A stretch of DNA of 24,929 bases, taken from IMG/VR virus record IMGVR_UViG_3300012948_000020, positions 1 through 24,929 of that record; one strand, given 5' to 3'. The position numbers and the translations under genes were made by a program. This stretch comes from a virus. Lineage: Duplodnaviria; Caudoviricetes. The notes under the pieces were generated by a model, which saw only the letters and a list, made by a program, of their open reading frames with translations, had not been told where the DNA came from and did not search any database. This document shows, piece after piece, positions 379 to 24,805 of the stretch (positions within the stretch are counted from its first letter, which is position 1; each line of letters opens with the position of its first letter).

Positions 379-380
379 AT

Positions 381-409
381 CGCAGAAATAACACGGGTTA
401 TAATGAGAG
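381..409 (+). promoter_or_regulatory. Repeated putative phage promoter motif, copy 1
   Basis: CGCAG-aaataacacgggtta-TAATGAGAG with a 15-nt spacer; the same motif recurs at five or more other sites. Confidence 0.75.
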
Positions 410-485
410 GGTAAAGAGTGTGGCCTCCGGCTGCCTCGTGCAATTAACGGCCTCCGGCTGTATTGCACACGCCCTCTCATTTTTT
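402..485 (+). ncRNA. Putative small structured RNA / terminated leader 1
   Basis: AATGAGAGGG (402-411) pairs with CCCTCTCATT (472-481), followed by a T-run. Internal GTGCAAT/ATTGCAC stem and two copies of GGCCTCCGGCTG. Confidence 0.6.
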
Positions 486-489
486 CTCG

Positions 490-518
490 CGCAGAAATAA
501 CATGGCTTTTAATGAGAG
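490..518 (+). promoter_or_regulatory. Repeated putative phage promoter motif, copy 2
   Basis: CGCAG-aaataacatggcttt-TAATGAGAG. Confidence 0.75.
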
Positions 519-593
519 AGTGACATGCCCGACGTTTAAGGGATACAGCGGCTACCGTCTAAGACCGTGTTCATGCACTCTCAATTTTTTTTT
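514..593 (+). ncRNA. Putative small structured RNA / terminated leader 2
   Basis: GAGAGTG-a-CATG (516-527) pairs with CATGCACTCTC (572-582), followed by T9. Confidence 0.6.
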
Positions 594-816: not shown

Positions 817-818
817 AC

Positions 819-847
819 CGCAAGAATAACATGGCATATAATGAGAG
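819..847 (+). promoter_or_regulatory. Repeated putative phage promoter motif, copy 3
   Basis: CGCAA-gaataacatggcata-TAATGAGAG. Confidence 0.75.
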
Positions 848-896
848 GAAGGTTCAATTTGGAATCGTTCGCAGCTGGGACTGCGCCTCTCTTTTT
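843..896 (+). ncRNA. Putative small structured RNA / terminated leader 3
   Basis: GAGAGG (843-848) pairs with CCTCTC (886-891), followed by T5. Internal CGCAG-ctggga-CTGCG hairpin (870-885). Confidence 0.55.
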
Positions 897-915
897 ATTT
901 CCGAAAGGAGGTGTC

Positions 916-2999: not shown

Positions 3000-3004
3000 A
3001 CATT

Positions 3005-3033
3005 CGCAGCTATAACATGCCTTATAATGAGAG
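3005..3033 (+). promoter_or_regulatory. Repeated putative phage promoter motif, copy 4
   Basis: CGCAG-ctataacatgcctta-TAATGAGAG, upstream of the gene at 3057. Confidence 0.75.
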
Positions 3034-3056
3034 GCTATCTACTAAAAGGAGTATAG

Positions 3057-3317
3057 ATGTCAGGCCTTATTTCTATTGCCAAATTTGCTGCAACCACCGC
3101 TGCAAGTTTGAGTGTTGGAAAGGTCCTCAACGACATCATCAAGAATAACGTCACCATCACGACTCGCGTCGATAAGTACGCGGTCAACGTTGGTGGGTTC
3201 ATTCTCGGATCGATGATCGTTGACAAAGCCCGAGAACATCTCAACAAACAGTGGGAAGAAGCAGTTGAAGATTGGAAGAAAAGTAAGAGCGAGGCAGAAG
3301 CAGAAGAAGAGAAGTAA
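3057..3317 (+). CDS. Small putative membrane-associated protein in its own promoter-gene-terminator cassette
   Basis: RBS AAAAGGAG; flanked by motif copy 4 and a terminator. Confidence 0.8.
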   Translation: MSGLISIAKFAATTAASLSVGKVLNDIIKNNVTITTRVDKYAVNVGGFILGSMIVDKAREHLNKQWEEAVEDWKKSKSEAEAEEEK

Positions 3318-4386: not shown

Positions 4387-5306
4387 ATCTTCTACCGGCA
4401 GCGATCAGCATAAAGATCGCTCGTACAGCATTAGTGGTTCAGAAGAACTCTCCCGAGATTCTCTTTGGCGCGGGCGTTGTTGGTTTTGTGGGAACCACGA
4501 TCCTGGCTTGCCGAGCCACATTGAGAGTCGACGATGTTCTGAATGAAGCAAAGAACAAGATGGATCTCACCAATACTTTGCAACATGACGATTACGACGA
4601 TAGAGATCGAGCACGAGATCGTACGCTTATTCGGTATCAAACGGCGGCAAAGATCGGTAAGGAATATGCTCCGGTGGTAATTTTGGGCATTGCTTCTATT
4701 GCTGCCCTTACACGATCGCACCAGATCTTGAATCAGCGTAATGCAGGTTTGGTGGCTGCGTACACTGCTCTTGATCGAGGGTTCAAGGAGTACCGAGCTC
4801 GAGTGATCGCGAAGTACGGAGCGGAGGCGGATCGGGATCTGCGATATGGCACTCGGGAGATTACTGTAGTAGACCCAGAGACGCAAGAGAGAACGACGAC
4901 TGTAAGTGCGGGTCTCGGCGCCGAATCGATCTACGCCAAGTTCTTCGACGAGAGCTCTTCGTCATGGAGCAGAGATCCAGAACTTAATCGGTTCTTCCTC
5001 CAGTCTCAGCAGAACTACGCGAACGATCAGTTGATCTCTCGTGGTCATATTTTCCTCAACGAAGTGTATGACCTGCTCGGTTTGGAGCGAACCTCGGCCG
5101 GATCTGTCGTTGGCTGGGTTGTCTCTCATGACGGCTCGACCGACAACAAAGTCGACTTCGGTATCTTCAACGAAGATAGTCAGGCGGCTCGAGATTTCGT
5201 CAACGGCTTCGAAGGAGCCATTCTACTCGACTTCAACGTCGATGGTGTGATCTACAATCTGATCGACACGCTACCTGAGGAGTTGCAATGGCAGCTGAAT
5301 CACTAA
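4383..5306 (+). CDS. Conserved phage membrane-anchored protein (DUF6353-like), paralog 2
   Basis: NSPEILFGAGVVG TM segment and FLNEVYDLLGL...VGW motif; RBS AAGGAG. Confidence 0.85.
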   Translation: MNLLPAAISIKIARTALVVQKNSPEILFGAGVVGFVGTTILACRATLRVDDVLNEAKNKMDLTNTLQHDDYDDRDRARDRTLIRYQTAAKIGKEYAPVVILGIASIAALTRSHQILNQRNAGLVAAYTALDRGFKEYRARVIAKYGAEADRDLRYGTREITVVDPETQERTTTVSAGLGAESIYAKFFDESSSSWSRDPELNRFFLQSQQNYANDQLISRGHIFLNEVYDLLGLERTSAGSVVGWVVSHDGSTDNKVDFGIFNEDSQAARDFVNGFEGAILLDFNVDGVIYNLIDTLPEELQWQLNH

Positions 5307-6595: not shown

Positions 6596-9500
6596 TTGAT
6601 GGATTTTTATCAGATCCTCTCTAGAGAAACGAAAGATAAGGGTATTGAACTATACCCTGATTTCATCGTTAAACGCTCTCAGGATCTGATGGTTCAAGGA
6701 CGGACCTTTTATGCCATTTGGGATAAAGAAAAAGGTCTTTGGTCTCGCGATGAGTATGACGTTCAGCGACTTGTAGACGAAGAACTAGAGAGAGAAGCAA
6801 GTAGACTTCGTCAAGAAACGGGAATTAATTACGTGGTAAAATACATGCGCTCATTTCAAAGCAATACTTGGGCGCGATTCAAGCAATTCCTGGCTAATAT
6901 CAGCGACAATAATCATCCTCTCGATTCCAAGATTCTATTCTCGAATTCGGAGATACAGAAGAAGGATTATGCCAGTAGGCATCTGAGCTATCCCTTAGAA
7001 GAAGGCGATATTTCAGCGTGGGATGAGCTTGTTGGGACGTTGTATTCAGTGGAAGAACGAGCCAAAATCGAATGGGCTATCGGATCCATCGTGGCTGGAG
7101 ACTCGAAGAAAATCCAAAAGTTCTTCGTGTTCTATGGGCCCGCTGGATCCGGTAAGTCCACGATTTTGAACGTAATGCAAAAGTTGTTTGACGGCTACAC
7201 GACGACGTTCGATGGGAAAGCACTAGGGCGTGCGGATGGAACATTCGCCACGGAAGCCTTCAAACACAATCCCTTGGTCGCTATTCAACACGATGGTGAT
7301 CTGTCCAGACTTGAGGATAACACTCGGCTGAACTCGATCGTCTCGCACGAACAGATGACGATGAACGAGAAGTACAAGCCGAGTTATTCTGCAAGAGCGG
7401 ATGCATTGTTGTTTATCGGTACGAATCAACCGGTAAAAATCACAGATGCCAAATCAGGAATTATCCGTAGATTAGTAGACATACATCCTACTGGTGTAAG
7501 GATTCCGATCAGGCATTACCAAACCTTGCTGAGTCGAATCGAATTCGAGCTCGGAGCTATCGCTCAGCATTGTCTTCAAGTATATCTGGAAATGGGCAAG
7601 AACTACTACAACGGTTACCGCCCACTCGAGATGATGCTCCAAACCGACGTGTTCTTCAATTTTATCGAAGCCTACTACGATATTTTCAAATCACAAAACT
7701 ACACGACCTTGAAGCAAGCATACGGTCTGTACAAAGAGTTCTGCGGCGAGACCGGTATCGAGAGACCCTTGCCTCAGTACAAAATTCGTGAAGAGCTTCG
7801 TGATTACTTTGACGACTTCAAAGATCGAGGCGAGGTAGATGGAGAAAGAGTACGAAGTCTCTATACTGGATTTAATGCAGAAAAGTTTAAGGTTCCAAAA
7901 GAAACTGATAGCGATCTACCTGCATATTCTCTTGTTATGGATGAGACTAGTTCACTCCTTGATATTGAGTTTGCTGAACAGCCAGCTCAGTACGCAAATA
8001 AAGACGGAGTTCCAGGACGCAAGTGGGAAAACGTTAAACGAACTCTTTCAGATATTGAAACAACGCGTCTCCACTATGTTCGAGTACCCGAAAAACACAT
8101 CGTAATCGACTTCGACCTGAAAGAGCTCAATGGACAGAACAACGCCCTTGAACGTAACTTGGAAGCCGCAAGCAGTTGGCCAGCAACCTATGCCGAGCTT
8201 AGCCAATCTGGAAAAGGCGTACATCTCCATTATGAATATGAAGGAGATTCCGGTGAGCTGGCGACTACATATTCTGAGGGAATTGAGATCAAAGTATATT
8301 CAGGAGATGCATCATTACGAAGAAGACTCTCGCTCTGTAATTCCATTCCCGTTGCAGGAATCAGTAGCGGTCTCCCTCTCAAAAAGAAGAAGGAGAAGAT
8401 GCTTAAGGCCAAGACTATCACATCTGAAAAGGGTCTTAGGGATCTCATAGAACGAAATCTGAGGAAAGAGATCCATCCTGGCACCAAGCCATCTGTCGAC
8501 TTCATTGCTCATATTCTCGAGGAGGCCTATGAATCCAAGCTAAAGTACGACGTCACCGACATGCGTCCCCGTATTCTAGCGTTCGCCAATAACAGCACAC
8601 ATCAAGCATCGACTTGTTTGAAGACCGTTCAGAAGATGCACTTCCAATCAGAACCGGAAGTAGGTCCAGATGCTGTGGTAGAAGTAGACGATGATCGCAT
8701 GGTTATATTTGACGTTGAGGTGTATCCTAATCTCTTTGTCATTTGTTGGAAGTTTCGTGGAGACGACAACGTTGTAAGGATGATCAATCCGACACAAGCA
8801 GAAGTCGAGGCGCTAACGCGACTAAAACTTGTGGGTTTCTACAACCGTCGATTCGACAATCACATTCTGTACGCCGCTGTCTTGGGATATAGCATTCCGC
8901 AATTGTACGAACTTGCTCGAAAGATTGTCGTCGACAACAATCGAAATGCGCCGTTTGCTCAGGCGTACAATCTCTCTTACGCTGATGTCTGGGATTTCAG
9001 CTCGATCAAACAAGGCTTGAAGAAATTCGAGATCGATCTGGGAATCCATCACATGGAGTTGGACTTTCCGTTGAACGAACCCGTAGACGAGAAGGATTGG
9101 CCAAGAGTAGTCGAGTACTGTGTAAATGATGTGAGGGCAACAGAGGCAGTGCTCGAAGATCGATGGGAAGACTTCGTAGCCCGTCAGATTCTGGCCGAGC
9201 TCAGTGGGTTAACCGTCAACGACACGACACAAAGACACACAGCTAAGATCATATTTGGGGACGACAAGAATCCTCAACAATATTTTGTCTATACGGATCT
9301 AAGCGAGGAATTCAATGGCTATACGTTTGATGCTGGAGAGAGCCACTATCGAGGGGAAAACCCAGGTGAAGGTGGTTACGTTTACGCCGAACCTGGTATA
9401 TACAGTTCCGTTGCTCTACTTGACATCGCGTCTATGCATCCCACAACCATTGAAATACTCAATCTATTTGGTAAGTATACTGAAAAATTTGGAGATCTCA

Positions 9501-10381
9501 AGCTGGCGAGAATTGCCATCAAGCGTGGAGATTTTGCCACCGCTCGACAGATGATGAACGGTCGACTAGCTCCGTATCTTGAAAACGAAGAGGGTGCGGA
9601 TAAGCTAGCGTATGCCTTGAAGATCGTGATCAACATCGTCTACGGGCTCACATCGGCAAGTTTCCCTAATCCATTCCGAGATCACAGAAACAAAGACAAC
9701 ATCGTCGCCAAACGTGGCGCGCTCTATATGATCGACTTGAAGAACGATCTACAAGATGCTGGATATTCTGTAGCACATATCAAGACGGACTCCGTGAAGC
9801 TTCCTGAAGCAACACCAGAAGAGATCAACTTCGTAGTAGAGCACGGAGCTCGTTATGGCTATGACTTCGAACACGAGACAACGTACGACAAGCTCTGTCT
9901 CGTGAATGATGCTGTGTACATTGCTTGTAAAGATGGTCAGTGGACAGCTGTAGGTTCCCAATTTCAACATCCTTACGTATTCAAACAATTGTTCTCCGGG
10001 GAAGATTTGGAATTCGACGATTTCTGCGAAAGTAAGAACGTCACCAAGGGGACAATGTATCTAGATAGAGAGGATCATGGCGAAAAAGAAGGAAAAGAAA
10101 AGCAAGAAGACCTCAATTATCGTGACATGCGTCATCTTGGGAGGACTGGCCGGTTCGTACCTGTGTTGGAAGGCGGCGGGACACTTTACCGAGTAGCGGA
10201 CGACAAGTACTATGCTGTGTCGGGTACCAAAGATCATCTGTGGATAGAAGCTGAGATCGCTGCTTCCATGCCAGATCTCCAAATCGATTACTCATATTTC
10301 GAGAAGTTGAAAGACACAGCTATAAAGACCATAGAGGAATTCGGATCATTTGAGGAGTTAGTAAATGGCACAGCAAGATAA
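6596..10381 (+). CDS. Multifunctional replicase: SF3/D5-like helicase + AEP primase + 3'-5' exonuclease + family B DNA polymerase
   Basis: Walker A GPAGSGKST; AEP motifs DFD and SQSGKGVHLHY; exonuclease motifs FDVEV, FYNRRFD and YCVND; PolB motifs DIASMHP, KIVINIVYG and KTDS. Confidence 0.9.
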   Translation: MMDFYQILSRETKDKGIELYPDFIVKRSQDLMVQGRTFYAIWDKEKGLWSRDEYDVQRLVDEELEREASRLRQETGINYVVKYMRSFQSNTWARFKQFLANISDNNHPLDSKILFSNSEIQKKDYASRHLSYPLEEGDISAWDELVGTLYSVEERAKIEWAIGSIVAGDSKKIQKFFVFYGPAGSGKSTILNVMQKLFDGYTTTFDGKALGRADGTFATEAFKHNPLVAIQHDGDLSRLEDNTRLNSIVSHEQMTMNEKYKPSYSARADALLFIGTNQPVKITDAKSGIIRRLVDIHPTGVRIPIRHYQTLLSRIEFELGAIAQHCLQVYLEMGKNYYNGYRPLEMMLQTDVFFNFIEAYYDIFKSQNYTTLKQAYGLYKEFCGETGIERPLPQYKIREELRDYFDDFKDRGEVDGERVRSLYTGFNAEKFKVPKETDSDLPAYSLVMDETSSLLDIEFAEQPAQYANKDGVPGRKWENVKRTLSDIETTRLHYVRVPEKHIVIDFDLKELNGQNNALERNLEAASSWPATYAELSQSGKGVHLHYEYEGDSGELATTYSEGIEIKVYSGDASLRRRLSLCNSIPVAGISSGLPLKKKKEKMLKAKTITSEKGLRDLIERNLRKEIHPGTKPSVDFIAHILEEAYESKLKYDVTDMRPRILAFANNSTHQASTCLKTVQKMHFQSEPEVGPDAVVEVDDDRMVIFDVEVYPNLFVICWKFRGDDNVVRMINPTQAEVEALTRLKLVGFYNRRFDNHILYAAVLGYSIPQLYELARKIVVDNNRNAPFAQAYNLSYADVWDFSSIKQGLKKFEIDLGIHHMELDFPLNEPVDEKDWPRVVEYCVNDVRATEAVLEDRWEDFVARQILAELSGLTVNDTTQRHTAKIIFGDDKNPQQYFVYTDLSEEFNGYTFDAGESHYRGENPGEGGYVYAEPGIYSSVALLDIASMHPTTIEILNLFGKYTEKFGDLKLARIAIKRGDFATARQMMNGRLAPYLENEEGADKLAYALKIVINIVYGLTSASFPNPFRDHRNKDNIVAKRGALYMIDLKNDLQDAGYSVAHIKTDSVKLPEATPEEINFVVEHGARYGYDFEHETTYDKLCLVNDAVYIACKDGQWTAVGSQFQHPYVFKQLFSGEDLEFDDFCESKNVTKGTMYLDREDHGEKEGKEKQEDLNYRDMRHLGRTGRFVPVLEGGGTLYRVADDKYYAVSGTKDHLWIEAEIAASMPDLQIDYSYFEKLKDTAIKTIEEFGSFEELVNGTAR

Positions 10382-11790: not shown

Positions 11791-12108
11791 TTGACAGTAC
11801 TACTCACAGCGCTAGTACTCTTGGTGCACGGTGTGCATCATCAAGATAATCGCTGGAAAGTAGTAAAACCGTACAATGCCAAGTTAGAGCGTATGGCAAT
11901 GTGTGAGTCGACCAAGCGTTGGCATATCGTTACTCACACAAGAACCGCGACATATTACGGCGGACTACAGTTTAGTCTGTCAACGTGGAAATCTGTACAC
12001 GGGAAAGGATATCCTCACAAAAACAGCAAGCTGGAACAGAAGTATCGAGCAGTTTTACTTATTAGACGCCGCGGGTATCAACCCTGGCCTATTTGCGGAA
12101 GCGCATAA
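11791..12108 (+). CDS. Secreted resuscitation-promoting-factor (Rpf)-like lytic transglycosylase
   Basis: Hydrophobic N-terminus; CES (catalytic Glu), YYGGLQF..STW, S..EQ and WP.CG motifs; RBS AGGAGG. Confidence 0.85.
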   Translation: MTVLLTALVLLVHGVHHQDNRWKVVKPYNAKLERMAMCESTKRWHIVTHTRTATYYGGLQFSLSTWKSVHGKGYPHKNSKLEQKYRAVLLIRRRGYQPWPICGSA

Positions 12109-13002: not shown

Positions 13003-13082
13003 GCTGGATCATCTGGTTGGTCATCATCGTCTTGGTTCTCATGTTTCTCTTCTGGGTGATTACAAGACGGTCGCAGAAATAA
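12999..13082 (+). CDS. Membrane micro-protein, 27 aa (MSWIIWLVIIVLVLMFLFWVITRRSQK)
   Basis: ATGA-coupled; single TM segment with a basic tail. Confidence 0.6.
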   Translation: MSWIIWLVIIVLVLMFLFWVITRRSQK

Positions 13083-13100
13083 CATGTACTATAATGAGAG
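13072..13100 (+). promoter_or_regulatory. Repeated putative phage promoter motif, copy 5
   Basis: CGCAG-aaataacatgtacta-TAATGAGAG. Confidence 0.75.
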
Positions 13101-13141
13101 AGCTGAACGTTTTGAGGTGCTACCTAACGCTCTCTTTTTTT
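13096..13141 (+). ncRNA. Putative small RNA / terminated leader 4
   Basis: GAGAGC (13098-13103)/GCTCTC (13129-13134) followed by T7. Confidence 0.5.
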
Positions 13142-13272: not shown

Positions 13273-15195
13273 ATGACCGCAGTAAGAAAGGTGCGACGTC
13301 ACCGTAAGCCGTTGGGGTTTGCGGCGGCGTTTGTGACACTTTCTGCAATTCTGGTGTTTGCGTTCGCCTCGAGCGCACTCATCGGTAGCAGTAACTTCGA
13401 AGGAAACGACGGGAATCTCGTCGTGAACGGAGCCGGTCATACTGACTGGGACAATGCTCCGAATCTGACTTCCGCCCAGGATCAGGAGCGGAGCCAAACT
13501 GACAACTCGTTCGGACAGGGCACGAAGGAAGACAACGTGAACGTTACTGTTGTCTCGGGCTCGATTCCGAATTCGAAGGCCGACCTCGCACGCTATGCAA
13601 CTGCTGGTGAGGTCATCAACGGCGAAACGTATCTCTATCTTGCGTGGAGCCGTGCCAACCAGTCCGGAACGGTCAACTTCGACTTCGAGCTGAATCAGCT
13701 GGCTCAGCCAGATCTGACAACGCCTGGAGCGAAGGTGCTGAACCGGATGGCGGGTGATGCTCTGATCAACTACTCGTTCCAGGGTGGAAGCAACACGCCG
13801 ACGCTCACGAGGCGATCGTGGACCGGCAGCGCCTGGGGACCAGAGGTTCCGATCAGTGGCACCTGTTCTGAGGGAGCAACAAACAGCTCCCCGGTTCTTG
13901 ACACGCTCGGTGGGCGACCGCCGGTTAGCCGTCCTGCTCAGCAGTTCGGTGAGGCCGCGATCAACCTCGTATGTGCTGGAATCGTTCAGCCGAACGCATG
14001 CGAGCCGTTCACGTCGTCGTACGTGAAGTCCCGCTCTTCGACAGCGTTTACGTCGGAGATCAAGGATTTCGTGGCGCCGATTCCGTTGAACTTCTCGAAC
14101 TGTGGTCGGGTGATCATTCGAAAGCAGACCGATCCCAATGGTGCTACTCAGTCGTTCGGATACCATAAATCATTCACCACACAGCCTGCAACAGGGAACA
14201 CATTCTCGTTGCAGGACGATGGTGTTCAGAACTTCACTGGGGTGCAACAGGCAAGTGGTCTGACCGTGAGCGAAGATCCGGCGCCACCTGGCTGGGACTT
14301 CGATCATGTGGACTGCTCGGCATCAACGGGCGTAAGTCCGACAATCAACGGAGCATTGGTGACGTTTGCCATCGACAATGCTTCCGATATTCTCGACTGC
14401 ACCTACTTCAACCGCAGTCGAGGCACGATCATCCTCAAGAAGGTGACCGATAGCGGCAACGGCAGCTTCCTGTTCACATCTGGTACGCTGCCCGGTGCCC
14501 CATTCACACTCACCACAACCGGTGCAGGTGAAGCTGGATCTGCTTCGCAGACGATCAGCGATCTCGTTCCTGGTGTGTATGATGCAGCTGAGCAGGTCCC
14601 TGCCAACTGGCATATCGTCGGAACACCGTCTTGTGACGACAATAGTTCCCCGGCGGCAATCAGCCTGCAGGGTGGCGAGACCGTCACTTGTACGTGGCAC
14701 GACGACCGTGATGTGGGAGCGATCGACATCTCCAAGCTGCGTAAGCATGCAGCTGACGGACCTGGCGATCACCCGCAGTCGGGCGTTCAGTTCCAGGTGC
14801 TGCTCGGCGGTAACGTCGTCGGTAGTGCTACGACTGACTCGAGTGGCCATGCTTGTGTGAGTGGTCTTCTCGTCTCGGCGTTCGCTGGTGACTACACGGT
14901 CCACGAGATCCTGCCTTCTGGTTATCACGGAGAAGCAGACAAGACCGTGACTGTCGTTACGTCGACTGGCTGCGGTGACGAGCCGAATGACGACGCGGAT
15001 GTCACGTTCCACAACACACCACTGACGAACGTAACCGTCTCGATCGATTCTCAGGTCGTTGGCGGCACGGCGTCGACGGTGGACTGCGACAACAACGACC
15101 TCGACTTCTCGACCGGGGCCGGTGGGGATGGTTCACAGACGGCGAACAATCAGGAACCGCAGACCATCCATTGCACGATCGTAGTCGATCCGTAA
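13273..15195 (+). CDS. Secreted beta-rich protein with CnaB/SpaA (pilin, prealbumin-fold)-like repeats
   Basis: Basic then hydrophobic signal peptide; repeats with I.I.K...E...TF/Y.N/D pattern and paired Cys; RBS AGGAGG. Confidence 0.8.
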   Translation: MTAVRKVRRHRKPLGFAAAFVTLSAILVFAFASSALIGSSNFEGNDGNLVVNGAGHTDWDNAPNLTSAQDQERSQTDNSFGQGTKEDNVNVTVVSGSIPNSKADLARYATAGEVINGETYLYLAWSRANQSGTVNFDFELNQLAQPDLTTPGAKVLNRMAGDALINYSFQGGSNTPTLTRRSWTGSAWGPEVPISGTCSEGATNSSPVLDTLGGRPPVSRPAQQFGEAAINLVCAGIVQPNACEPFTSSYVKSRSSTAFTSEIKDFVAPIPLNFSNCGRVIIRKQTDPNGATQSFGYHKSFTTQPATGNTFSLQDDGVQNFTGVQQASGLTVSEDPAPPGWDFDHVDCSASTGVSPTINGALVTFAIDNASDILDCTYFNRSRGTIILKKVTDSGNGSFLFTSGTLPGAPFTLTTTGAGEAGSASQTISDLVPGVYDAAEQVPANWHIVGTPSCDDNSSPAAISLQGGETVTCTWHDDRDVGAIDISKLRKHAADGPGDHPQSGVQFQVLLGGNVVGSATTDSSGHACVSGLLVSAFAGDYTVHEILPSGYHGEADKTVTVVTSTGCGDEPNDDADVTFHNTPLTNVTVSIDSQVVGGTASTVDCDNNDLDFSTGAGGDGSQTANNQEPQTIHCTIVVDP

Positions 15196-15202
15196 ACACG
15201 AT

Positions 15203-15715
15203 TCTCCGGAAGCGCGAGGGAATCCGCCGGAGATAGGGAGGGGTGCCCATAACCACACACTAGTGGGCAAGCATCCCTCCCGCGCGTTTTTCCGTCCTAT
15301 GGTCTAAGGTAGATGGTTGCGAACGGCGCAACTCACGGATAAAACTGAGTTCACAGTAGCATAGGAATCTGTGAGCCAATCCGGTAGTAAGGAAAGCGAA
15401 AGTTCACTTGCAAGGGGCGAGTAGCTTGTAGTTCCAGAATCCGGCGGTACGAGAGGTCGTTATTACAATCAGCGCCAAGCTGAGCTACTCTCGTTAGCTC
15501 AGTCCTTTCGTAGTGGTCTCAGGCATGCGGGCATCGTATCGGGCTTTTCAAAGCATGCAGGGTGAGACGTCGATAGGCCCGAGCGGGCTCACCCATAAAA
15601 TTTAAAGCTTAGATGAGAGGATAAGGGAGACATCTAAGGATAGGGCGGCTCTATCATTTCCGCAAGCCCGAACCCCCTAGATTCTTTTCACTGCGGCGTG
15701 AAGAGGCTAGGGGGT
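15203..15715 (+). ncRNA. Array 1 of back-to-back structured RNA elements
   Basis: About 520 nt with no credible ORF, tiled by stems: TCTCCGG/CCGGAGA, GGGAGGGGTGC/GCATCCCTCCC, TCCTATG/CATAGGA, GCTGAGCTA/TAGCTCAGT, GTCTCA/TGAGAC, CTTAGATG/CATCTAAG and ACCCCCTAG/CTAGGGGGT. Confidence 0.6.
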
Positions 15716-15735
15716 AGGCATTAATTGGGGGATAA

Positions 15736-16150: not shown

Positions 16151-16306
16151 ATGGCAGAGCTGGAGAACGGTCTAATCGAGCATGTGAAGAAAGTTCGGAT
16201 GGCTGAGACTTTGGCAAAAGATGGGCTTTCCGCTGAAGAAATTGCCAAAGCCATGGGTATCAGCGAAGCTAGTGTCCGTTTTCTTTTGAGCGAAACAACT
16301 AAATGA
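16151..16306 (+). CDS. Stand-alone HTH protein, 51 aa
   Basis: Not in the ORF track; GGAG upstream; DGLSAEEIAKAMGISEASVRFLL is a canonical HTH. Confidence 0.75.
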   Translation: MAELENGLIEHVKKVRMAETLAKDGLSAEEIAKAMGISEASVRFLLSETTK

Positions 16307-19995: not shown

Positions 19996-20285
19996 ACAAG
20001 CGGTTTGAGCGTGTAAGGATTTGCCCAGAAAAATCGATCCGAAACTTTATGGGGGATTGAGTGTAATATCTATATAGCCCATAACCTACGTATTCTCTAA
20101 CCCTACGCGCACGGAGAATAGATATTAGGTTAAACGCTATAGAAAGTTCTTTGACGTTTTTTCTTGGCAAGGCCAAAAAGTGAGTTTTTAGCTCAACCAC
20201 AAAGAAAATCGAGCAAAAACAGCTGAAAAAAAATCTTGGCAACGATCTTGGCAAATATCTTTTTATAGGAGGAAAACAATAAAAA
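19956..20285. repeat. Putative replication origin with five TCTTGGCA iterons in AT-rich DNA
   Basis: TCTTGGCA at 19956, 19964, 20162, 20234 and 20246; A/T tracts; non-coding from 19996. Confidence 0.5.
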
Positions 20286-20382
20286 CCACCCACAAGGCTC
20301 GCGCAGGTTTCTCAAGGCCTTTAAAAGAAAATCGGCCCGCAAAGCCGTCGCCTTTTCCCAAGGGCCCTAATAGGAGAAAAGT

Positions 20383-20880: not shown

Positions 20881-20889
20881 ATATTAGTT

Positions 20890-20918
20890 CGTAGCCACTA
20901 CGTAGAATATAATGAGAG
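20890..20918 (+). promoter_or_regulatory. Repeated putative phage promoter motif, copy 6 (variant)
   Basis: CGTAG-ccactacgtagaata-TAATGAGAG, followed by a weak AGAGGTAG/CTATCTTT stem and a T-run. Confidence 0.6.
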
Positions 20919-20961
20919 GTAGTAGCTAACTCTATCTTTTTTGAGGAGGTAATCACTAAAT

Positions 20962-21279
20962 GTGAACGAAGCCCAATACCAATCCAAGGTAATACAGAGA
21001 CTTGAGCGCATGTTTCCAGGGTGTTTGGTTCTAAAAAACGATGCGACATACCGACAAGGTATTCCAGATCTCATACTTCTTTGGAATGAATTTTGGGCTT
21101 CGCTAGAAGTAAAAGTTGGACCATCAATTCGTAAACAAGCCAATCAAGATTACTACATTGACAAGCTGAGTGAGATGTCGTTTGCGGCCTATATTTACCC
21201 TGATGTTGAAGAGGAGGTTTTGAATGCGCTTCAACAGGCATTTAAATCTCCAAGGAGAACACGCATTCCTCAGTCCTAG
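20962..21279 (+). CDS. VRR-NUC / Holliday-junction-resolvase-like PD-(D/E)xK nuclease
   Basis: E..Q...GIPDL...LEVK...Q pattern; RBS GAGGAGGT. Confidence 0.85.
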   Translation: MNEAQYQSKVIQRLERMFPGCLVLKNDATYRQGIPDLILLWNEFWASLEVKVGPSIRKQANQDYYIDKLSEMSFAAYIYPDVEEEVLNALQQAFKSPRRTRIPQS

Positions 21280-21781
21280 TTCATATCACTGGATTCACTA
21301 TACACCAGAGCGACTGATTGATCGCTGGACTTCCGCCAAAGCCGGAGAATACGGTGTTGCGCAGCATGACTATGCTATGCGCGAAATCCAAGCTGGTAGA
21401 CTTTCCGATCTTGTTGGAACTGTTGGCCTATACATCAACGATGCTATCAAGTATAGGATGACTTGCGAGCAGGTCCTTTATTTTTCTGAAAATTGCTTCG
21501 GCACTGCGGATACGATTGCGTTTCGATACAACACTCTTCGAATTCACGATTTGAAAACAGGAGTATATCCTGGTTCGGTACACCAACTTGAAGTTTATGC
21601 TGCATTGTTTTGTCTTGAGTACGACAAGGATCCGTTCAAGATCAAAATTGAGTTGCGCATTTATCAAGATAATGAGGTGATTGTGTTCGATGCTGATCCA
21701 GAGGATATTTTCTATATCATGGAAAAAATTCAAGAATTCGACAGGTTGCTCAGCCATCGGCGATTAGAGGAGGAGTCGTGA
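21224..21781 (+). CDS. PD-(D/E)xK exonuclease-like protein (RecB/Cas4-like)
   Basis: HAFLSPS, E, FGTAD, IHDLKTG and QLEVYA motifs. Confidence 0.8.
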   Translation: MRFNRHLNLQGEHAFLSPSSYHWIHYTPERLIDRWTSAKAGEYGVAQHDYAMREIQAGRLSDLVGTVGLYINDAIKYRMTCEQVLYFSENCFGTADTIAFRYNTLRIHDLKTGVYPGSVHQLEVYAALFCLEYDKDPFKIKIELRIYQDNEVIVFDADPEDIFYIMEKIQEFDRLLSHRRLEEES

Positions 21782-24516
21782 TTGTTAGCGAAGAACAACA
21801 TCGTCTTATGCATTACGGCACTCCTCGAAAGTCTGGTCGTTATCCTTGGGGATCTGGCGATAATGCTCCAGAAGCTACTAGAAGCAAGGATATTCTCGAC
21901 GATATTGAATTTCTTAAAAATAAAGGTATGTCGGAAGCCGAAATAGCCAAAGGCATGGGCTATGCGTCGACAACTGAGCTTCGAAACAAGAAGTCCCGAG
22001 CTAAAGCGGAAGTGAAACAAGCATCGATTATCGAAATCGAACGGCTGAAAGAAAAAGGCATGTCAAATACGGCTATTGCTCGGCAGACGGGTATTGCAGA
22101 GCCTACGGTTCGGCTTTACCAGAAAGCAGGAGAGAAGGATAAAGCCGATGTCTATCATTCTACGGCCAATATGCTTAGAGAACAAATCAAGGCAAAAGAT
22201 GTAGTGGACGTCGGAAGAGGAGTTCCCGAAAGACTTGGTATTACGCCTGACCGTTTGAAGGTTTCGCTTTCGATGCTGAAAGACGAAGGGTATGGAATCT
22301 TTGACCTTCCCATTCGACAGCTTGGTACTGGAAACATTACGATTCAAAAAGTGTTGGCAAAACCAGGTATCACCAGAAAGCAAATTGACCAAAACCGGCT
22401 GATCGTCAAACAAATTCAAGATACATATTCTGAAGATCGTGGTCGCAGCTTTCTCAATACTCAGCCGCCACTTTCCATCAGCTCGAGGAGAGTGGCTGTT
22501 GTTTACGGTAAAGAAGGTGCAAAAGCAGACGGTATGATTTACGTTAAGCCTGGTGTGGATAGGTTGAAGATTGGTGACAATCGTTACGGGCAGGTGCGTA
22601 TCATGGTTGATGGTACGCACTATCTGAAAGGCATGGCCGCATACAAGGACAATCTTCCGGATCATATCGATGTGGAGTTTCACACAAAGAAAGATGATAC
22701 CGGTCGTAAAAAAGATGCTATGAAGGAACTCGAAAAAGATCCCGTAACCGGCAAAGTTGATCCAGACAATCCGTTTGGTACGATCGTACGCCAAGTGCAT
22801 AATCCAAAAACGGGCAAGGTTTCATCGGCGATGAATCTGGTCGGCGGTAAAGAAGGAGCTGGAGAAGAAGGTTACTGGGATACCTGGTCACGCAGTTTGT
22901 CTTCTCAGATGTTGTCCAAGCAAGACCCCGCTCTTGCAAAGCAGCAACTCGATTTGACGTTTGAACGCCGTAAAAAAGAATACGATGAGATTCTTTCGTT
23001 GACCAACGCTACGGTTCGGCAACAACTTCTCTATAAGTTTGGCGATGAAGCGGACGCGGCATCGGCACATCTCAAAGCGGCCAATCTACCGAGGCAGTCG
23101 AACAAGGTATTGCTACCGGTTCGAACTATGAATCCAAAAGAGATCTATGCACCTAGCTATAAGAATGGTGAGCGAGTCGTATTGATTCGATTTCCTCACG
23201 GTGGAACGTTTGAGATTCCAGAATTGACCGTGAATAATAAAAACAAAGAAGCTCAAAGAATTATCGGTAGGCAAGCGATTGATGCTGTTGGTATTCATCA
23301 CTCTGTTGCTCACCATTTGTCTGGCGCAGATTTTGATGGGGATACCGTCCTTGTTATTCCAAACCCAAAACGAGATGTAAAGAAAACTTCTCCTCTTGAA
23401 GGATTGAAGGACTTTGATCCAATGATTTATAAGATCAAGGATCCTTCAATTAAACCCCCCACCGCTCAGCAAAAGGGTACTGAGATGGGGAAGATTTCTA
23501 ATCTTATTACCGATATGACGCTTCAAGGGGCAAGCCGAGAACAGTTGACCCGTGCTATTAAACATTCCATGGTTGTTATTGATTCGGAAAAACACGGTCT
23601 CGATTTCAGACAGTCTGAGAAAGATAATAATATTCTTGCGCTGAAAGCGGAGTATCAAGGTGGGGAACGAAGAGGCGCGTCTACCATCATCAGCAGAAAG
23701 AAGTCGGAAGTAAGAGTGCCGAAGAAACAGCTGTGGTCTCCAGGTCCACGCTCCATAGATCCAAAAACCGGGGAGAAGATTTTTAAGACCACCACGCGTC
23801 AGATTGCTGAAACCAAAACTCGAACTATACAGGGAAAGAAAGTAAAGGTCGAGACCGGCCGTATGATAACCCCCCTAGTAAAAAGTACAAAGGGTGCCGA
23901 GGCTCGAGACGCACGTACTCTGGTATCGGGTGATAACATCTATATGGAAACTCTGTATGCCACCCACTCCAACAAGTTGAAGGCGTTGGCAAACGCGGCC
24001 CGGAAAGAAGCAGTCCTTACAAAACCCCCCGCCCAAAACAAATCGGCTAAGAAAGTTTACAAGTCGGAGGTAGACTCTCTCAAAGCAAAACTTGATAAGG
24101 CCAAAGGAAACGCCCCCCTAGAAAGACAAGCCCAGCAGCTTGCTGGAGTGAGGATCCGCCAGCAGCGCCAGGCAAATCCAGGAATGGACAAAGAGACCGA
24201 GAAGAAGATGAAGTTCAAAGCTTTGGATGTGTATAGAGAAAGAGTCGGGGCCAAGAAAGATCAGATAGTTATTACTCCCCGCGAATGGGAAGCGATTCAG
24301 GCAGGTGCAATTAGTAATCACATGTTGACCGAGATTCTTAGTAACGCCGATGTTGATAGAGTTAAATACCTGGCTCTACCAAAGACTGAACCTAAGATGA
24401 CGAGCAACATGCTGGTAAGAGCCCGAGCAATGGCGAATAGTGGGTTTACCCAGGCTGAGATAGCTGAACAACTGGGCGTTGGACTGACTACACTCAAGGT
24501 GGGTCTCAGTGAGTGA
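21778..24516 (+). CDS. Putative single-subunit two-barrel (DPBB) RNA polymerase with HTH domains
   Basis: ADG...QVR...LKG; LIRFP; LSGADFDGD; MGKISN; HSMVVIDSEKHG; HTHs at both termini. Confidence 0.8.
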   Translation: MIVSEEQHRLMHYGTPRKSGRYPWGSGDNAPEATRSKDILDDIEFLKNKGMSEAEIAKGMGYASTTELRNKKSRAKAEVKQASIIEIERLKEKGMSNTAIARQTGIAEPTVRLYQKAGEKDKADVYHSTANMLREQIKAKDVVDVGRGVPERLGITPDRLKVSLSMLKDEGYGIFDLPIRQLGTGNITIQKVLAKPGITRKQIDQNRLIVKQIQDTYSEDRGRSFLNTQPPLSISSRRVAVVYGKEGAKADGMIYVKPGVDRLKIGDNRYGQVRIMVDGTHYLKGMAAYKDNLPDHIDVEFHTKKDDTGRKKDAMKELEKDPVTGKVDPDNPFGTIVRQVHNPKTGKVSSAMNLVGGKEGAGEEGYWDTWSRSLSSQMLSKQDPALAKQQLDLTFERRKKEYDEILSLTNATVRQQLLYKFGDEADAASAHLKAANLPRQSNKVLLPVRTMNPKEIYAPSYKNGERVVLIRFPHGGTFEIPELTVNNKNKEAQRIIGRQAIDAVGIHHSVAHHLSGADFDGDTVLVIPNPKRDVKKTSPLEGLKDFDPMIYKIKDPSIKPPTAQQKGTEMGKISNLITDMTLQGASREQLTRAIKHSMVVIDSEKHGLDFRQSEKDNNILALKAEYQGGERRGASTIISRKKSEVRVPKKQLWSPGPRSIDPKTGEKIFKTTTRQIAETKTRTIQGKKVKVETGRMITPLVKSTKGAEARDARTLVSGDNIYMETLYATHSNKLKALANAARKEAVLTKPPAQNKSAKKVYKSEVDSLKAKLDKAKGNAPLERQAQQLAGVRIRQQRQANPGMDKETEKKMKFKALDVYRERVGAKKDQIVITPREWEAIQAGAISNHMLTEILSNADVDRVKYLALPKTEPKMTSNMLVRARAMANSGFTQAEIAEQLGVGLTTLKVGLSE

Positions 24517-24805
24517 GATGCTTACATCAAGTAGTGAACCAACAGAATACATGCTAACAACAGTGGACAATCCATTCAATCCATTCACCGACTTCGATGC
24601 TTGGTTGGAGTATGACATTAGTTTAGGTTACAACACCATGTCTTTCTTAGACCGCATAGCCATGACATCGTTTGATTTGTCTGAACCAGACGCAGCCGTA
24701 GTGATACAAGATGCGATTGATGAGATTGTTCAAGAGAACGTCTTAGGTATGTGGAGAAAAGTTTCAAGAACTTCAGCAGAACAATTCGAACCAGAACAGA
24801 TGTAA
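24509..24805 (+). CDS. Conserved acidic phage protein (MLTTVDNPFNPF...)
   Basis: Overlaps the RNAP stop; the motif is typical of this phage group (recall). Confidence 0.8.
   Translation: MSEMLTSSSEPTEYMLTTVDNPFNPFTDFDAWLEYDISLGYNTMSFLDRIAMTSFDLSEPDAAVVIQDAIDEIVQENVLGMWRKVSRTSAEQFEPEQM

Follow-up and report, generated by a model that had tools for sequence, protein, structure and literature searches.

Introduction

Is the 912-amino-acid (aa) open reading frame (ORF) close to the end of virus record IMGVR_UViG_3300012948_000020 (IMG/VR; Duplodnaviria, Caudoviricetes) an RNA polymerase (RNAP), and if so, which promoters would it read? The whole record of 24,929 bases, referred to here as the window, covers the right half of a genome from the PHROG 4291 phage group, whose members include phages of Streptomyces, Arthrobacter, Gordonia, Rhodococcus, Microbacterium and Curtobacterium as well as Lactococcus phage 1706 and Faecalibacterium phages. 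The one sequencing data set that contains the record in full is from a soil metagenome, which may be where this DNA originated; no RNA data set containing it was among those listed. An earlier note on this DNA had read the ORF as a one-chain, two-barrel RNAP hidden in an apparent helix-turn-helix (HTH) protein, dependent on DNA and in no need of a sigma factor. The two-barrel reading is backed here by residue conservation and by matches of a structural model to QDE-1, RDR2 and P23-45 gp64. The protein is likely to be a DNA-dependent RNAP, and a promoter-like motif found throughout the group makes both its DNA dependence and its sigma independence more likely. The best model, to which we would attach a probability of about 0.55, is that of a virion-carried polymerase which reads its own promoter.

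Catalytic residues and predicted fold

All of the motifs quoted in the earlier note lie inside the ORF, in the positions and order claimed (Table 1), and a GAGGAGG Shine-Dalgarno sequence precedes the GTG start. Conservation was followed in an alignment of 150 rows (the window protein, 142 of the 150 listed representatives and seven locus proteins; the eight representatives omitted were the two long fusions and six further long sequences), in which the rows are 41-60% identical to the window polymerase, longer and shorter forms having been sampled among the 150 best rows. D251 is kept in 149 rows, and G252, Q272, R274, K284, G285, R471, P473, D518, D520, G521, D522, G571, N575, D602 and K605 are kept in all 150, among them the DFDGD loop on whose conservation the earlier reading depended; because the motif set is kept across the alignment, it is not due to chance. 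The eight canonical residues (D, R, K; R, P, D, D, D), which are named as invariant across two-barrel polymerases by Ruprich-Robert and Thuriaux (2010; PMC2919709), are jointly present in 149 of the 150 rows. By order and spacing, the first-barrel residues of the window protein would correspond to D709, R738 and K743 of QDE-1 as given in that paper, and catalysis would fall to D518, D520 and D522 together with D251. The "AVD..K.G" signature of the earlier note stands in part: D602 and K605 are invariant, but the last glycine is not conserved (G607 in 18/150 rows) and SPbeta YonO has no match to A[IV]D..K.

Small lone genes resembling polymerase residues 570-635, the helices past the catalytic loop, were seen in three related phages (L051, 1486-1821, minus strand; L052, 1519-1707, minus strand; L053, 1354-1689, plus strand), and are possible decoys or regulators.

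In an AlphaFold2 model built on 81 rows (pLDDT 88.1, pTM 0.80), a disordered stretch near the N-terminus (aa 8-33) is followed by a pair of HTH modules (36-115) and by a helix-hairpin region (117-194) which, by its secondary structure, is possibly winged-helix-like. Next come a core rich in beta structure and several long helices, and a further HTH (876-911) forms the C-terminus; the HTHs proposed for both ends of the protein are thus borne out by Pfam and by the model helices. When the model was compared with the PDB using Foldseek, as the earlier note had suggested, 25 matches were found at E ≤ 0.001, and the rows listed there are QDE-1, RDR2, P23-45 gp64, P74-26 gp62 and gp96, all two-barrel polymerases, with the large subunits of cellular RNAPs ranking next (QDE-1 E 3.8e-10, gp64 E 1.3e-7, gp96 E 1.7e-4; whole-chain TM about 0.3). 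QDE-1 is the best match, and VIA-align places aa 231-750 on QDE-1 682-1196 with Z 15.3 and an rmsd of 4.4 Å over 377 residues, followed by RDR2 (Z 14.9, 351 residues), gp62 (Z 12.6) and gp64 (Z 12.4). As QDE-1 682-1196 spans both conserved barrel segments, a pair of double-psi beta-barrels is predicted in the core. The structural matches cover about aa 230-750. A single-sequence search of the PDB with the polymerase gave no match, and an 11-row profile matched HTHs and designed helical repeats, and also, with E about 0.9, two phage RNAPs at their DFDGD loop.

Family, annotation and related enzymes

The polymerase call itself is not new, the window protein being a further member of a family predicted in print, and "hidden" was therefore too strong a word. 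The protein matches PHROG 4291, labelled "RNA-dependent RNA polymerase", over profile positions 5-906 of 909 (E = 0, 1109.6 bits). The phage 1706 family is one of five YonO-like families, with YonO in a separate one, in Ruprich-Robert and Thuriaux (2010; PMC2919709), and for the same protein Koert et al. (2021; bioRxiv 10.1101/842583) give an HHpred match to RNA-dependent RNA polymerase (RdRP), HTHs at both ends and DxDGD, describing it as a signature gene and as potentially an RNA polymerase. The window protein shares full-length homology, both terminal HTHs, DxDGD and a neighbourhood near the right genome end with 1706 ORF75 and its relative in Faecalibacterium phage FP_oengus, and differs merely as a new sequence (35.9% identity to 1706 ORF75 and 51.7% to gp57 of Streptomyces phage Moozy; with G015, the nearest relative in IMG/VR, it is 60%). 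Members of the actinobacteriophage supercluster and that of FP_oengus are named "HTH domain-containing protein".

The family is large: at 50% identity it forms 825 clusters (E < 1e-30), an estimated 4,700 of the stretches stored in IMG/VR match its pattern, and 317 stretches from bacterial genome assemblies were confirmed. The polymerase is matched by 250 phage records, of which 249 span at least 80% of the query. A first scan of viral contigs with the polymerase as a single protein found no relative, ESM Atlas matches are family members exclusively, and there is a weak match to phrog_8308 (E 1.2e-7). Two members (P0013, P0014) carry a 2H-phosphoesterase-like domain (2'-5' RNA ligase superfamily) fused before a complete polymerase, one above and one below the Pfam cut-off.

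The expectation that automated annotation would call the protein an HTH protein alone fits the top Pfam matches, which are HTHs, and the labels of most of the 60 best phage records, 51 of which read HTH or DNA-binding; it does not fit PHROGs or the five of those records that say RdRP (the other four are hypothetical). That the protein is a DNA-binding regulator or a replication primase, its polymerase site serving priming or nothing and the host doing the transcription, would agree with these record names and with the position of the gene beside helicase, nuclease and exonuclease genes; yet the full catalytic set is invariant and a primase-polymerase fusion is already encoded in the window (Table 1), which makes this the least probable of the explanations considered. 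An RdRP which copies RNAs of the phage, for example the short ones with a stem and U-tract that follow the motif described below, is also very improbable. It would agree with the PHROG label, with the best structural matches, QDE-1 and RDR2, with a weak Pfam match to RdRP (PF05183, aa 509-611, E 5.7e-4) and with an RNA-directed role for YonO-like proteins raised in PMC2919709. However, the label derives from homology and not from an assay, YonO strongly prefers DNA templates (PMC5467207), the DNA-dependent gp64 scores nearly as well, and three HTH modules together with a DNA motif point to DNA. Membership of the eukaryotic RdRP family PF05183 was rejected, the match lying under the Pfam gathering score (19.1 against 23.8 bits).

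The earlier assignment to a QDE-1/RDR and YonO type holds for the fold match to QDE-1 and RDR2 and not narrowly for SPbeta YonO. QDE-1 and RDR2 are the closest solved cores; however, identity is 12-15%, the HTH modules of the window protein lie outside the aligned range, and these enzymes have a role in eukaryotic silencing. With YonO the protein shares a phage-encoded single chain of about 100 kDa and the order DG, R..KG, RxPH, DxDGD, but there is no significant profile alignment (hhalign 1.4%, with a single YonO sequence as target), and membership of the YonO family proper was rejected on this ground. YonO is a strict DNA-dependent RNAP of late genes, its promoter undefined, according to the accessible part of PMC5467207. 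The Thermus phage P23-45 proteins, the non-virion gp64 and the tape-measure-fused virion RNAP gp96 (bioRxiv 10.1101/2022.12.01.518664), are likewise compact two-barrel phage DNA-dependent RNAPs with promoter motifs of their own; there, however, two enzymes go with two motifs, whereas one enzyme and one motif were found here, and the window polymerase, unlike gp96, is not fused to a tape measure.

A promoter-like motif of the group

The window holds six copies, one of them degenerate, of a 36-nt repeat family, CGCA-N4-wwACA-N5-TATAAT-GAGA, all intergenic and on the coding strand (Table 1); the group-wide form is CGC(A/G)-N4-wwACA-N5-TwTwAT-GA. The pattern has five matches in the window against none in 100 shuffles. 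A matrix trained on 27 seed sites finds seven matches each in Moozy, Mudcat and D_HF4_2, 14 in ReqiPoco6 and five in Lactococcus phage 1706, where the hexamer is TATAGT. In 14 phages, analysed as 15 sequence sets, all 139 sites lie on the coding strand; the count includes the seeds, two sites that look false and six records chosen for one exact match. Outside the training set, 80 loci from bacterial assemblies, largely gut Firmicutes and prophage-like, gave 115 sense sites, one antisense site and one in shuffled sequence, with a sense match in 69 loci. The exact motif occurs in 24 IMG/VR records, 15 of which carry the polymerase (including 6/6 near-complete ones), the other nine being fragments with other genes of the group; in all 24 the motif is confined to the polymerase-bearing phage group.

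The sites cluster past the tail and lysis genes, and often one stands before VRR-Nuc. CGC and ACA are near-invariant across hosts of two phyla, there is no -35 consensus, and the four bases past the hexamer are 90-99% purine. Between positions 5000 and 24929 the window shows no excess of sigma-70 promoters (21 vs 21.1). The word "promoter" does not occur in the main text of Koert et al. (2021; bioRxiv 10.1101/842583), and literature titles and abstracts, among which subscription journals are mostly uncovered so that the motif may be in print, yielded no assay of the PHROG 4291 family, the motif or DUF7211.

Five window stems (Table 1) start 0-2 bases past the hexamer and close just before a U-tract. 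Across the 139 sites, the first five bases past the hexamer pair with the stretch before a T-run at 14 sites, compared with an expectation of 3.3 and a maximum of 7 under arm swapping, and this excess is gone from offset 6 onward. The stems can be taken either as closed small RNAs or attenuators with a start directly past the hexamer, or as terminators that overlap with a promoter whose start lies further downstream; the first unit, which has no gene before the next motif copy, is a candidate small RNA. Searches of the window, stems included, found neither a tRNA nor a credible match in Rfam.

In relatives, copies of the motif are directly followed by tRNA-like elements (L006 23668-23787, L003 31049, G003 4909 and 5033, G023 24503), several of them enclosed by a leader-trailer pairing; the one in ReqiPoco6 alone is annotated. 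In the window, a lone 50-aa HTH protein (16154-16306, plus strand) resembles the second HTH of the polymerase (PHROG 4291 positions 81-118, E 1.6e-4) and could compete for the motif. The stretch 19996-20382, between the helicase and HNH genes, is rich in A/T tracts, shares the word AATAGATATTAG with the stretch before the degenerate motif copy and is a possible replication origin.

Table 1. Positions of the polymerase gene, its parts, the motif copies and neighbouring genes in the window.
Feature	Position	Strand	Remarks
Polymerase gene	21778..24516	+	912 aa, GTG start, 101.5 kDa, pI 9.7; PHROG 4291 / phage 1706 ORF75 family
N-terminal conserved peptide, H-x-G...SGRYxxG (aa 12-27)	21811..21858	+	Candidate packaging tag; conservation; pLDDT <50 at aa 8-33
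Two tandem N-terminal HTH modules (aa 36-115)	21883..22122	+	Pfam HTH matches aa 80-116; model helices 36-48, 53-59, 65-92, 97-104, 108-115
Helix-helix-beta-hairpin module (aa 117-194)	22126..22359	+	Model
Two-barrel catalytic core (aa 231-750)	22468..24027	+	On QDE-1 682-1196; VIA-align, Foldseek
First barrel: D251-G252, Q272-x-R274, K284-G285	22528..22632	+	Alignment
ADGMIYV	22525-22545	+	Motif in ORF
GQVR	22588-22599	+	Q272 at 22591
YLKG	22621-22632	+	Motif in ORF
Second barrel: R471-x-P473 and catalytic loop D518-F-D520-G-D522	23188..23343	+	150/150 rows
R471	23188	+	
ADFDGD	23326-23343	+	Motif in ORF
MGKISN	23485-23502	+	Motif in ORF
HSMVVIDSEKHG	23563-23598	+	Motif in ORF
C-terminal HTH (aa 876-911)	24403..24510	+	Sigma-4-like by Pfam; PF08281 best stretch 889-907; model helices 876-887, 892-899, 903-911
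Three HTH peptides quoted in the earlier note	aa 50-61, 94-106, 889-901		
Motif copy, CGCA-N4-TAACA-N5-TATAAT-GAGAG	379..411	+	Closed stem and U-tract 405-485; no gene before next copy
Motif copy, hexamer TTTAAT	488..520	+	Stem and U-tract 514-590
Motif copy	817..849	+	Stem and U-tract 843-897
Motif copy	3003..3035	+	Directly before Shine-Dalgarno and gene at 3057
Motif copy	13070..13102	+	Stem and U-tract 13096-13140
Degenerate motif copy	20888..20920	+	Before VRR-Nuc/exonuclease/polymerase operon; score 13.7; hairpin and U-tract 20914-20942
VRR-Nuc and Cas4/RecB-like exonuclease genes	20962..21781	+	Overlap each other and polymerase gene; one apparent operon
Small acidic conserved gene	24509..24805	+	PHROG 4303; overlaps polymerase stop
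Primase-DNA polymerase fusion	6596-10381		
Transglycosylase-like gene	11791-12108	+	PF06737

Which enzyme reads the motif

In the model that we prefer, the polymerase would be carried in the phage head and injected with the DNA, and would transcribe the small-gene and replication regions first. Its own HTH modules would read the CGC and ACA elements on a DNA template, and initiation would take place in the purine run past the hexamer. Late synthesis of the enzyme would start from the motif copy before VRR-Nuc, and late read-through across the joined cos ends would reach the head and tail genes.

Less probable, but the most serious competitor, is that the polymerase serves the late genes and that the motif is an early promoter whose TATAAT is recognised by the host holoenzyme carrying sigma-A. 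A phage activator might assist at the CGC element, which lies about 30 bases ahead of the start. T4 MotA provides an analogue for such an activator. The hexamer, tallied while left out of the scoring, argues for a host-read promoter in a set of 82 sites from mostly lytic and uncultured phages, where TATAAT is found at 58 and the pattern T-A-x-x-x-T is strong (T 81, A 74 and T 82 of 82). The five window stems also fit, since with a start 6-7 nt downstream they would stop upstream transcripts whilst the local one reads on, and prophage-like members would need a host-driven start. YonO, moreover, transcribes late genes (PMC5467207). In the bacterial-assembly loci, however, the hexamer is TTTTAT at 40 of 76 distinct sites, these being largely one orthologous position in related prophages and hence not independent. 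Sigma-70 -10 boxes require A at the second base; as this base is A in just 27 of the 76, the TTTTAT set is unsuited to host sigma-A. Near-invariant CGC and ACA elements, kept across two host phyla with no -35 consensus, likewise speak against host reading, as do the head-tail modules of 1706, Moozy and D_HF4_2, which hold no motif copy (no search for another late motif was made), and the structural label of 1706 ORF75 discussed below. Neither is a separate conserved activator named among the core genes of the group in the accessible text of Koert et al. (bioRxiv 10.1101/842583), where the polymerase is the sole HTH protein among the conserved genes listed.

Clues to a possible virion enzyme

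That the self-reading polymerase may travel in the virion is suggested first by phage 1706, whose ORF75 is labelled "structural protein" (GenBank EU081845.1). The first half of the conserved N-terminal peptide resembles the DUF7211 tag of head-region proteins, including the structural ORF7 of 1706, and in a profile search over 6,818 frames most of the matches next after the 11 polymerases were DUF7211-type, at E 0.03 or worse. Membership of DUF7211 (PF23847) was rejected, aa 1-50 being without a Pfam match. Two singletons of 1,800 aa (P0062, P0097) have the polymerase core at their C-terminus without the terminal HTHs, in one of them behind a phage portal domain and without the tag; they possibly reflect capture into head polyproteins, or else assembly artefacts.

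Several points weigh against this model and should be considered with it. The 1706 label reportedly comes from virion mass spectrometry, and that of ReqiPoco6 was copied by similarity; activity, start-site or virion data were found for no family member. The DUF7211 likeness is a half match (E 0.03-1, custom profile), the portal fusion is a single sequence, and the search for its contig did not find it, giving 11 loci which match the polymerase part alone. Among solved structures, those closest in fold are enzymes with RNA-dependent or dual-template activity. Before VRR-Nuc, the motif scores at least 12 in just 25 of 74 IMG/VR loci (none antisense, none in shuffled sequence); the 11 closest relatives (L054-L064) all fall short, the best of them scoring 1.9, and the window copy is degenerate. 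A Shine-Dalgarno sequence that would require initiation right past the hexamer was seen at two of 96 sites, a count which also goes against the model, though it is uninformative for the start site. Finally, many members lie on long bacterial contigs and are prophage-like, and since induction cannot start from a virion enzyme, such an enzyme cannot be the whole story.

Taken in full, the claim would be that a very widespread siphovirus group of ordinary size, infecting Actinobacteria and Firmicutes, is run by one head-packaged polymerase of 100 kDa with its own sigma-4-like HTHs, an N-terminal loading tag and one promoter kept across two host phyla, which would make the enzyme a minimal and self-sufficient relative of cellular RNAP with promoter specificity; this we hold to fall just short of even odds. 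The family can now be tested, given a confident model, invariant residues, a candidate promoter and cultured phages whose laboratory hosts, Streptomyces, Arthrobacter, Gordonia and Lactococcus, are harmless. How a one-chain two-barrel enzyme finds its promoter is open even for YonO, and should this enzyme initiate alone at the motif, it would offer a simple system for modelling ancestral promoter recognition and possibly a T7-like expression tool for Gram-positive bacteria, and would help to explain the move of the group from one host phylum to another. Re-annotation would be called for in about 250 phage records.

Genomic setting

The window encodes two DUF6353 proteins, the primase-DNA polymerase fusion, a single-stranded DNA-binding protein, a helicase, an HNH protein, VRR-Nuc, the exonuclease and the 912-aa ORF, with a small gene in last place. 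The family block of helicase, HNH, VRR-Nuc, RecB/Cas4 exonuclease, polymerase and small conserved gene is complete, and the order VRR-Nuc, exonuclease, polymerase is also found in Moozy, Mudcat, ReqiPoco6 and Petito. The small PHROG 4303 gene directly follows the polymerase in 34 of 50 loci (strict pattern). Its acidic product (pI about 4.1 in relatives), encoded beside the basic polymerase, is a possible subunit, chaperone or inhibitor of it; a complex prediction with polymerase aa 30-912 (score 0.10, mark 0.32) is evidence neither way, and an ESM Atlas search with the small protein gave no match.

The transglycosylase-like PF06737 gene hints at an actinobacterial host. A 640-aa protein (13273-15195, plus strand), which carries SpaA/prealbumin-like repeats and probably a signal peptide, is encoded in a stretch of raised GC content (0.55-0.57) with a motif copy 200 bases upstream, and its gene looks acquired from a host. 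It is followed by about 540 bases (15196-15735) in which no ORF of 60 aa starts; several inverted repeats were seen there by eye, and no tRNA or Rfam match was found. The window end stops short of the likely cos-site repeats known from the loci of relatives; there (L059, L066, L073, L090, L097 and others), strongly conserved G-run/C-run inverted repeats surround the likely cos site just past the last gene, and gene 1 follows closely.

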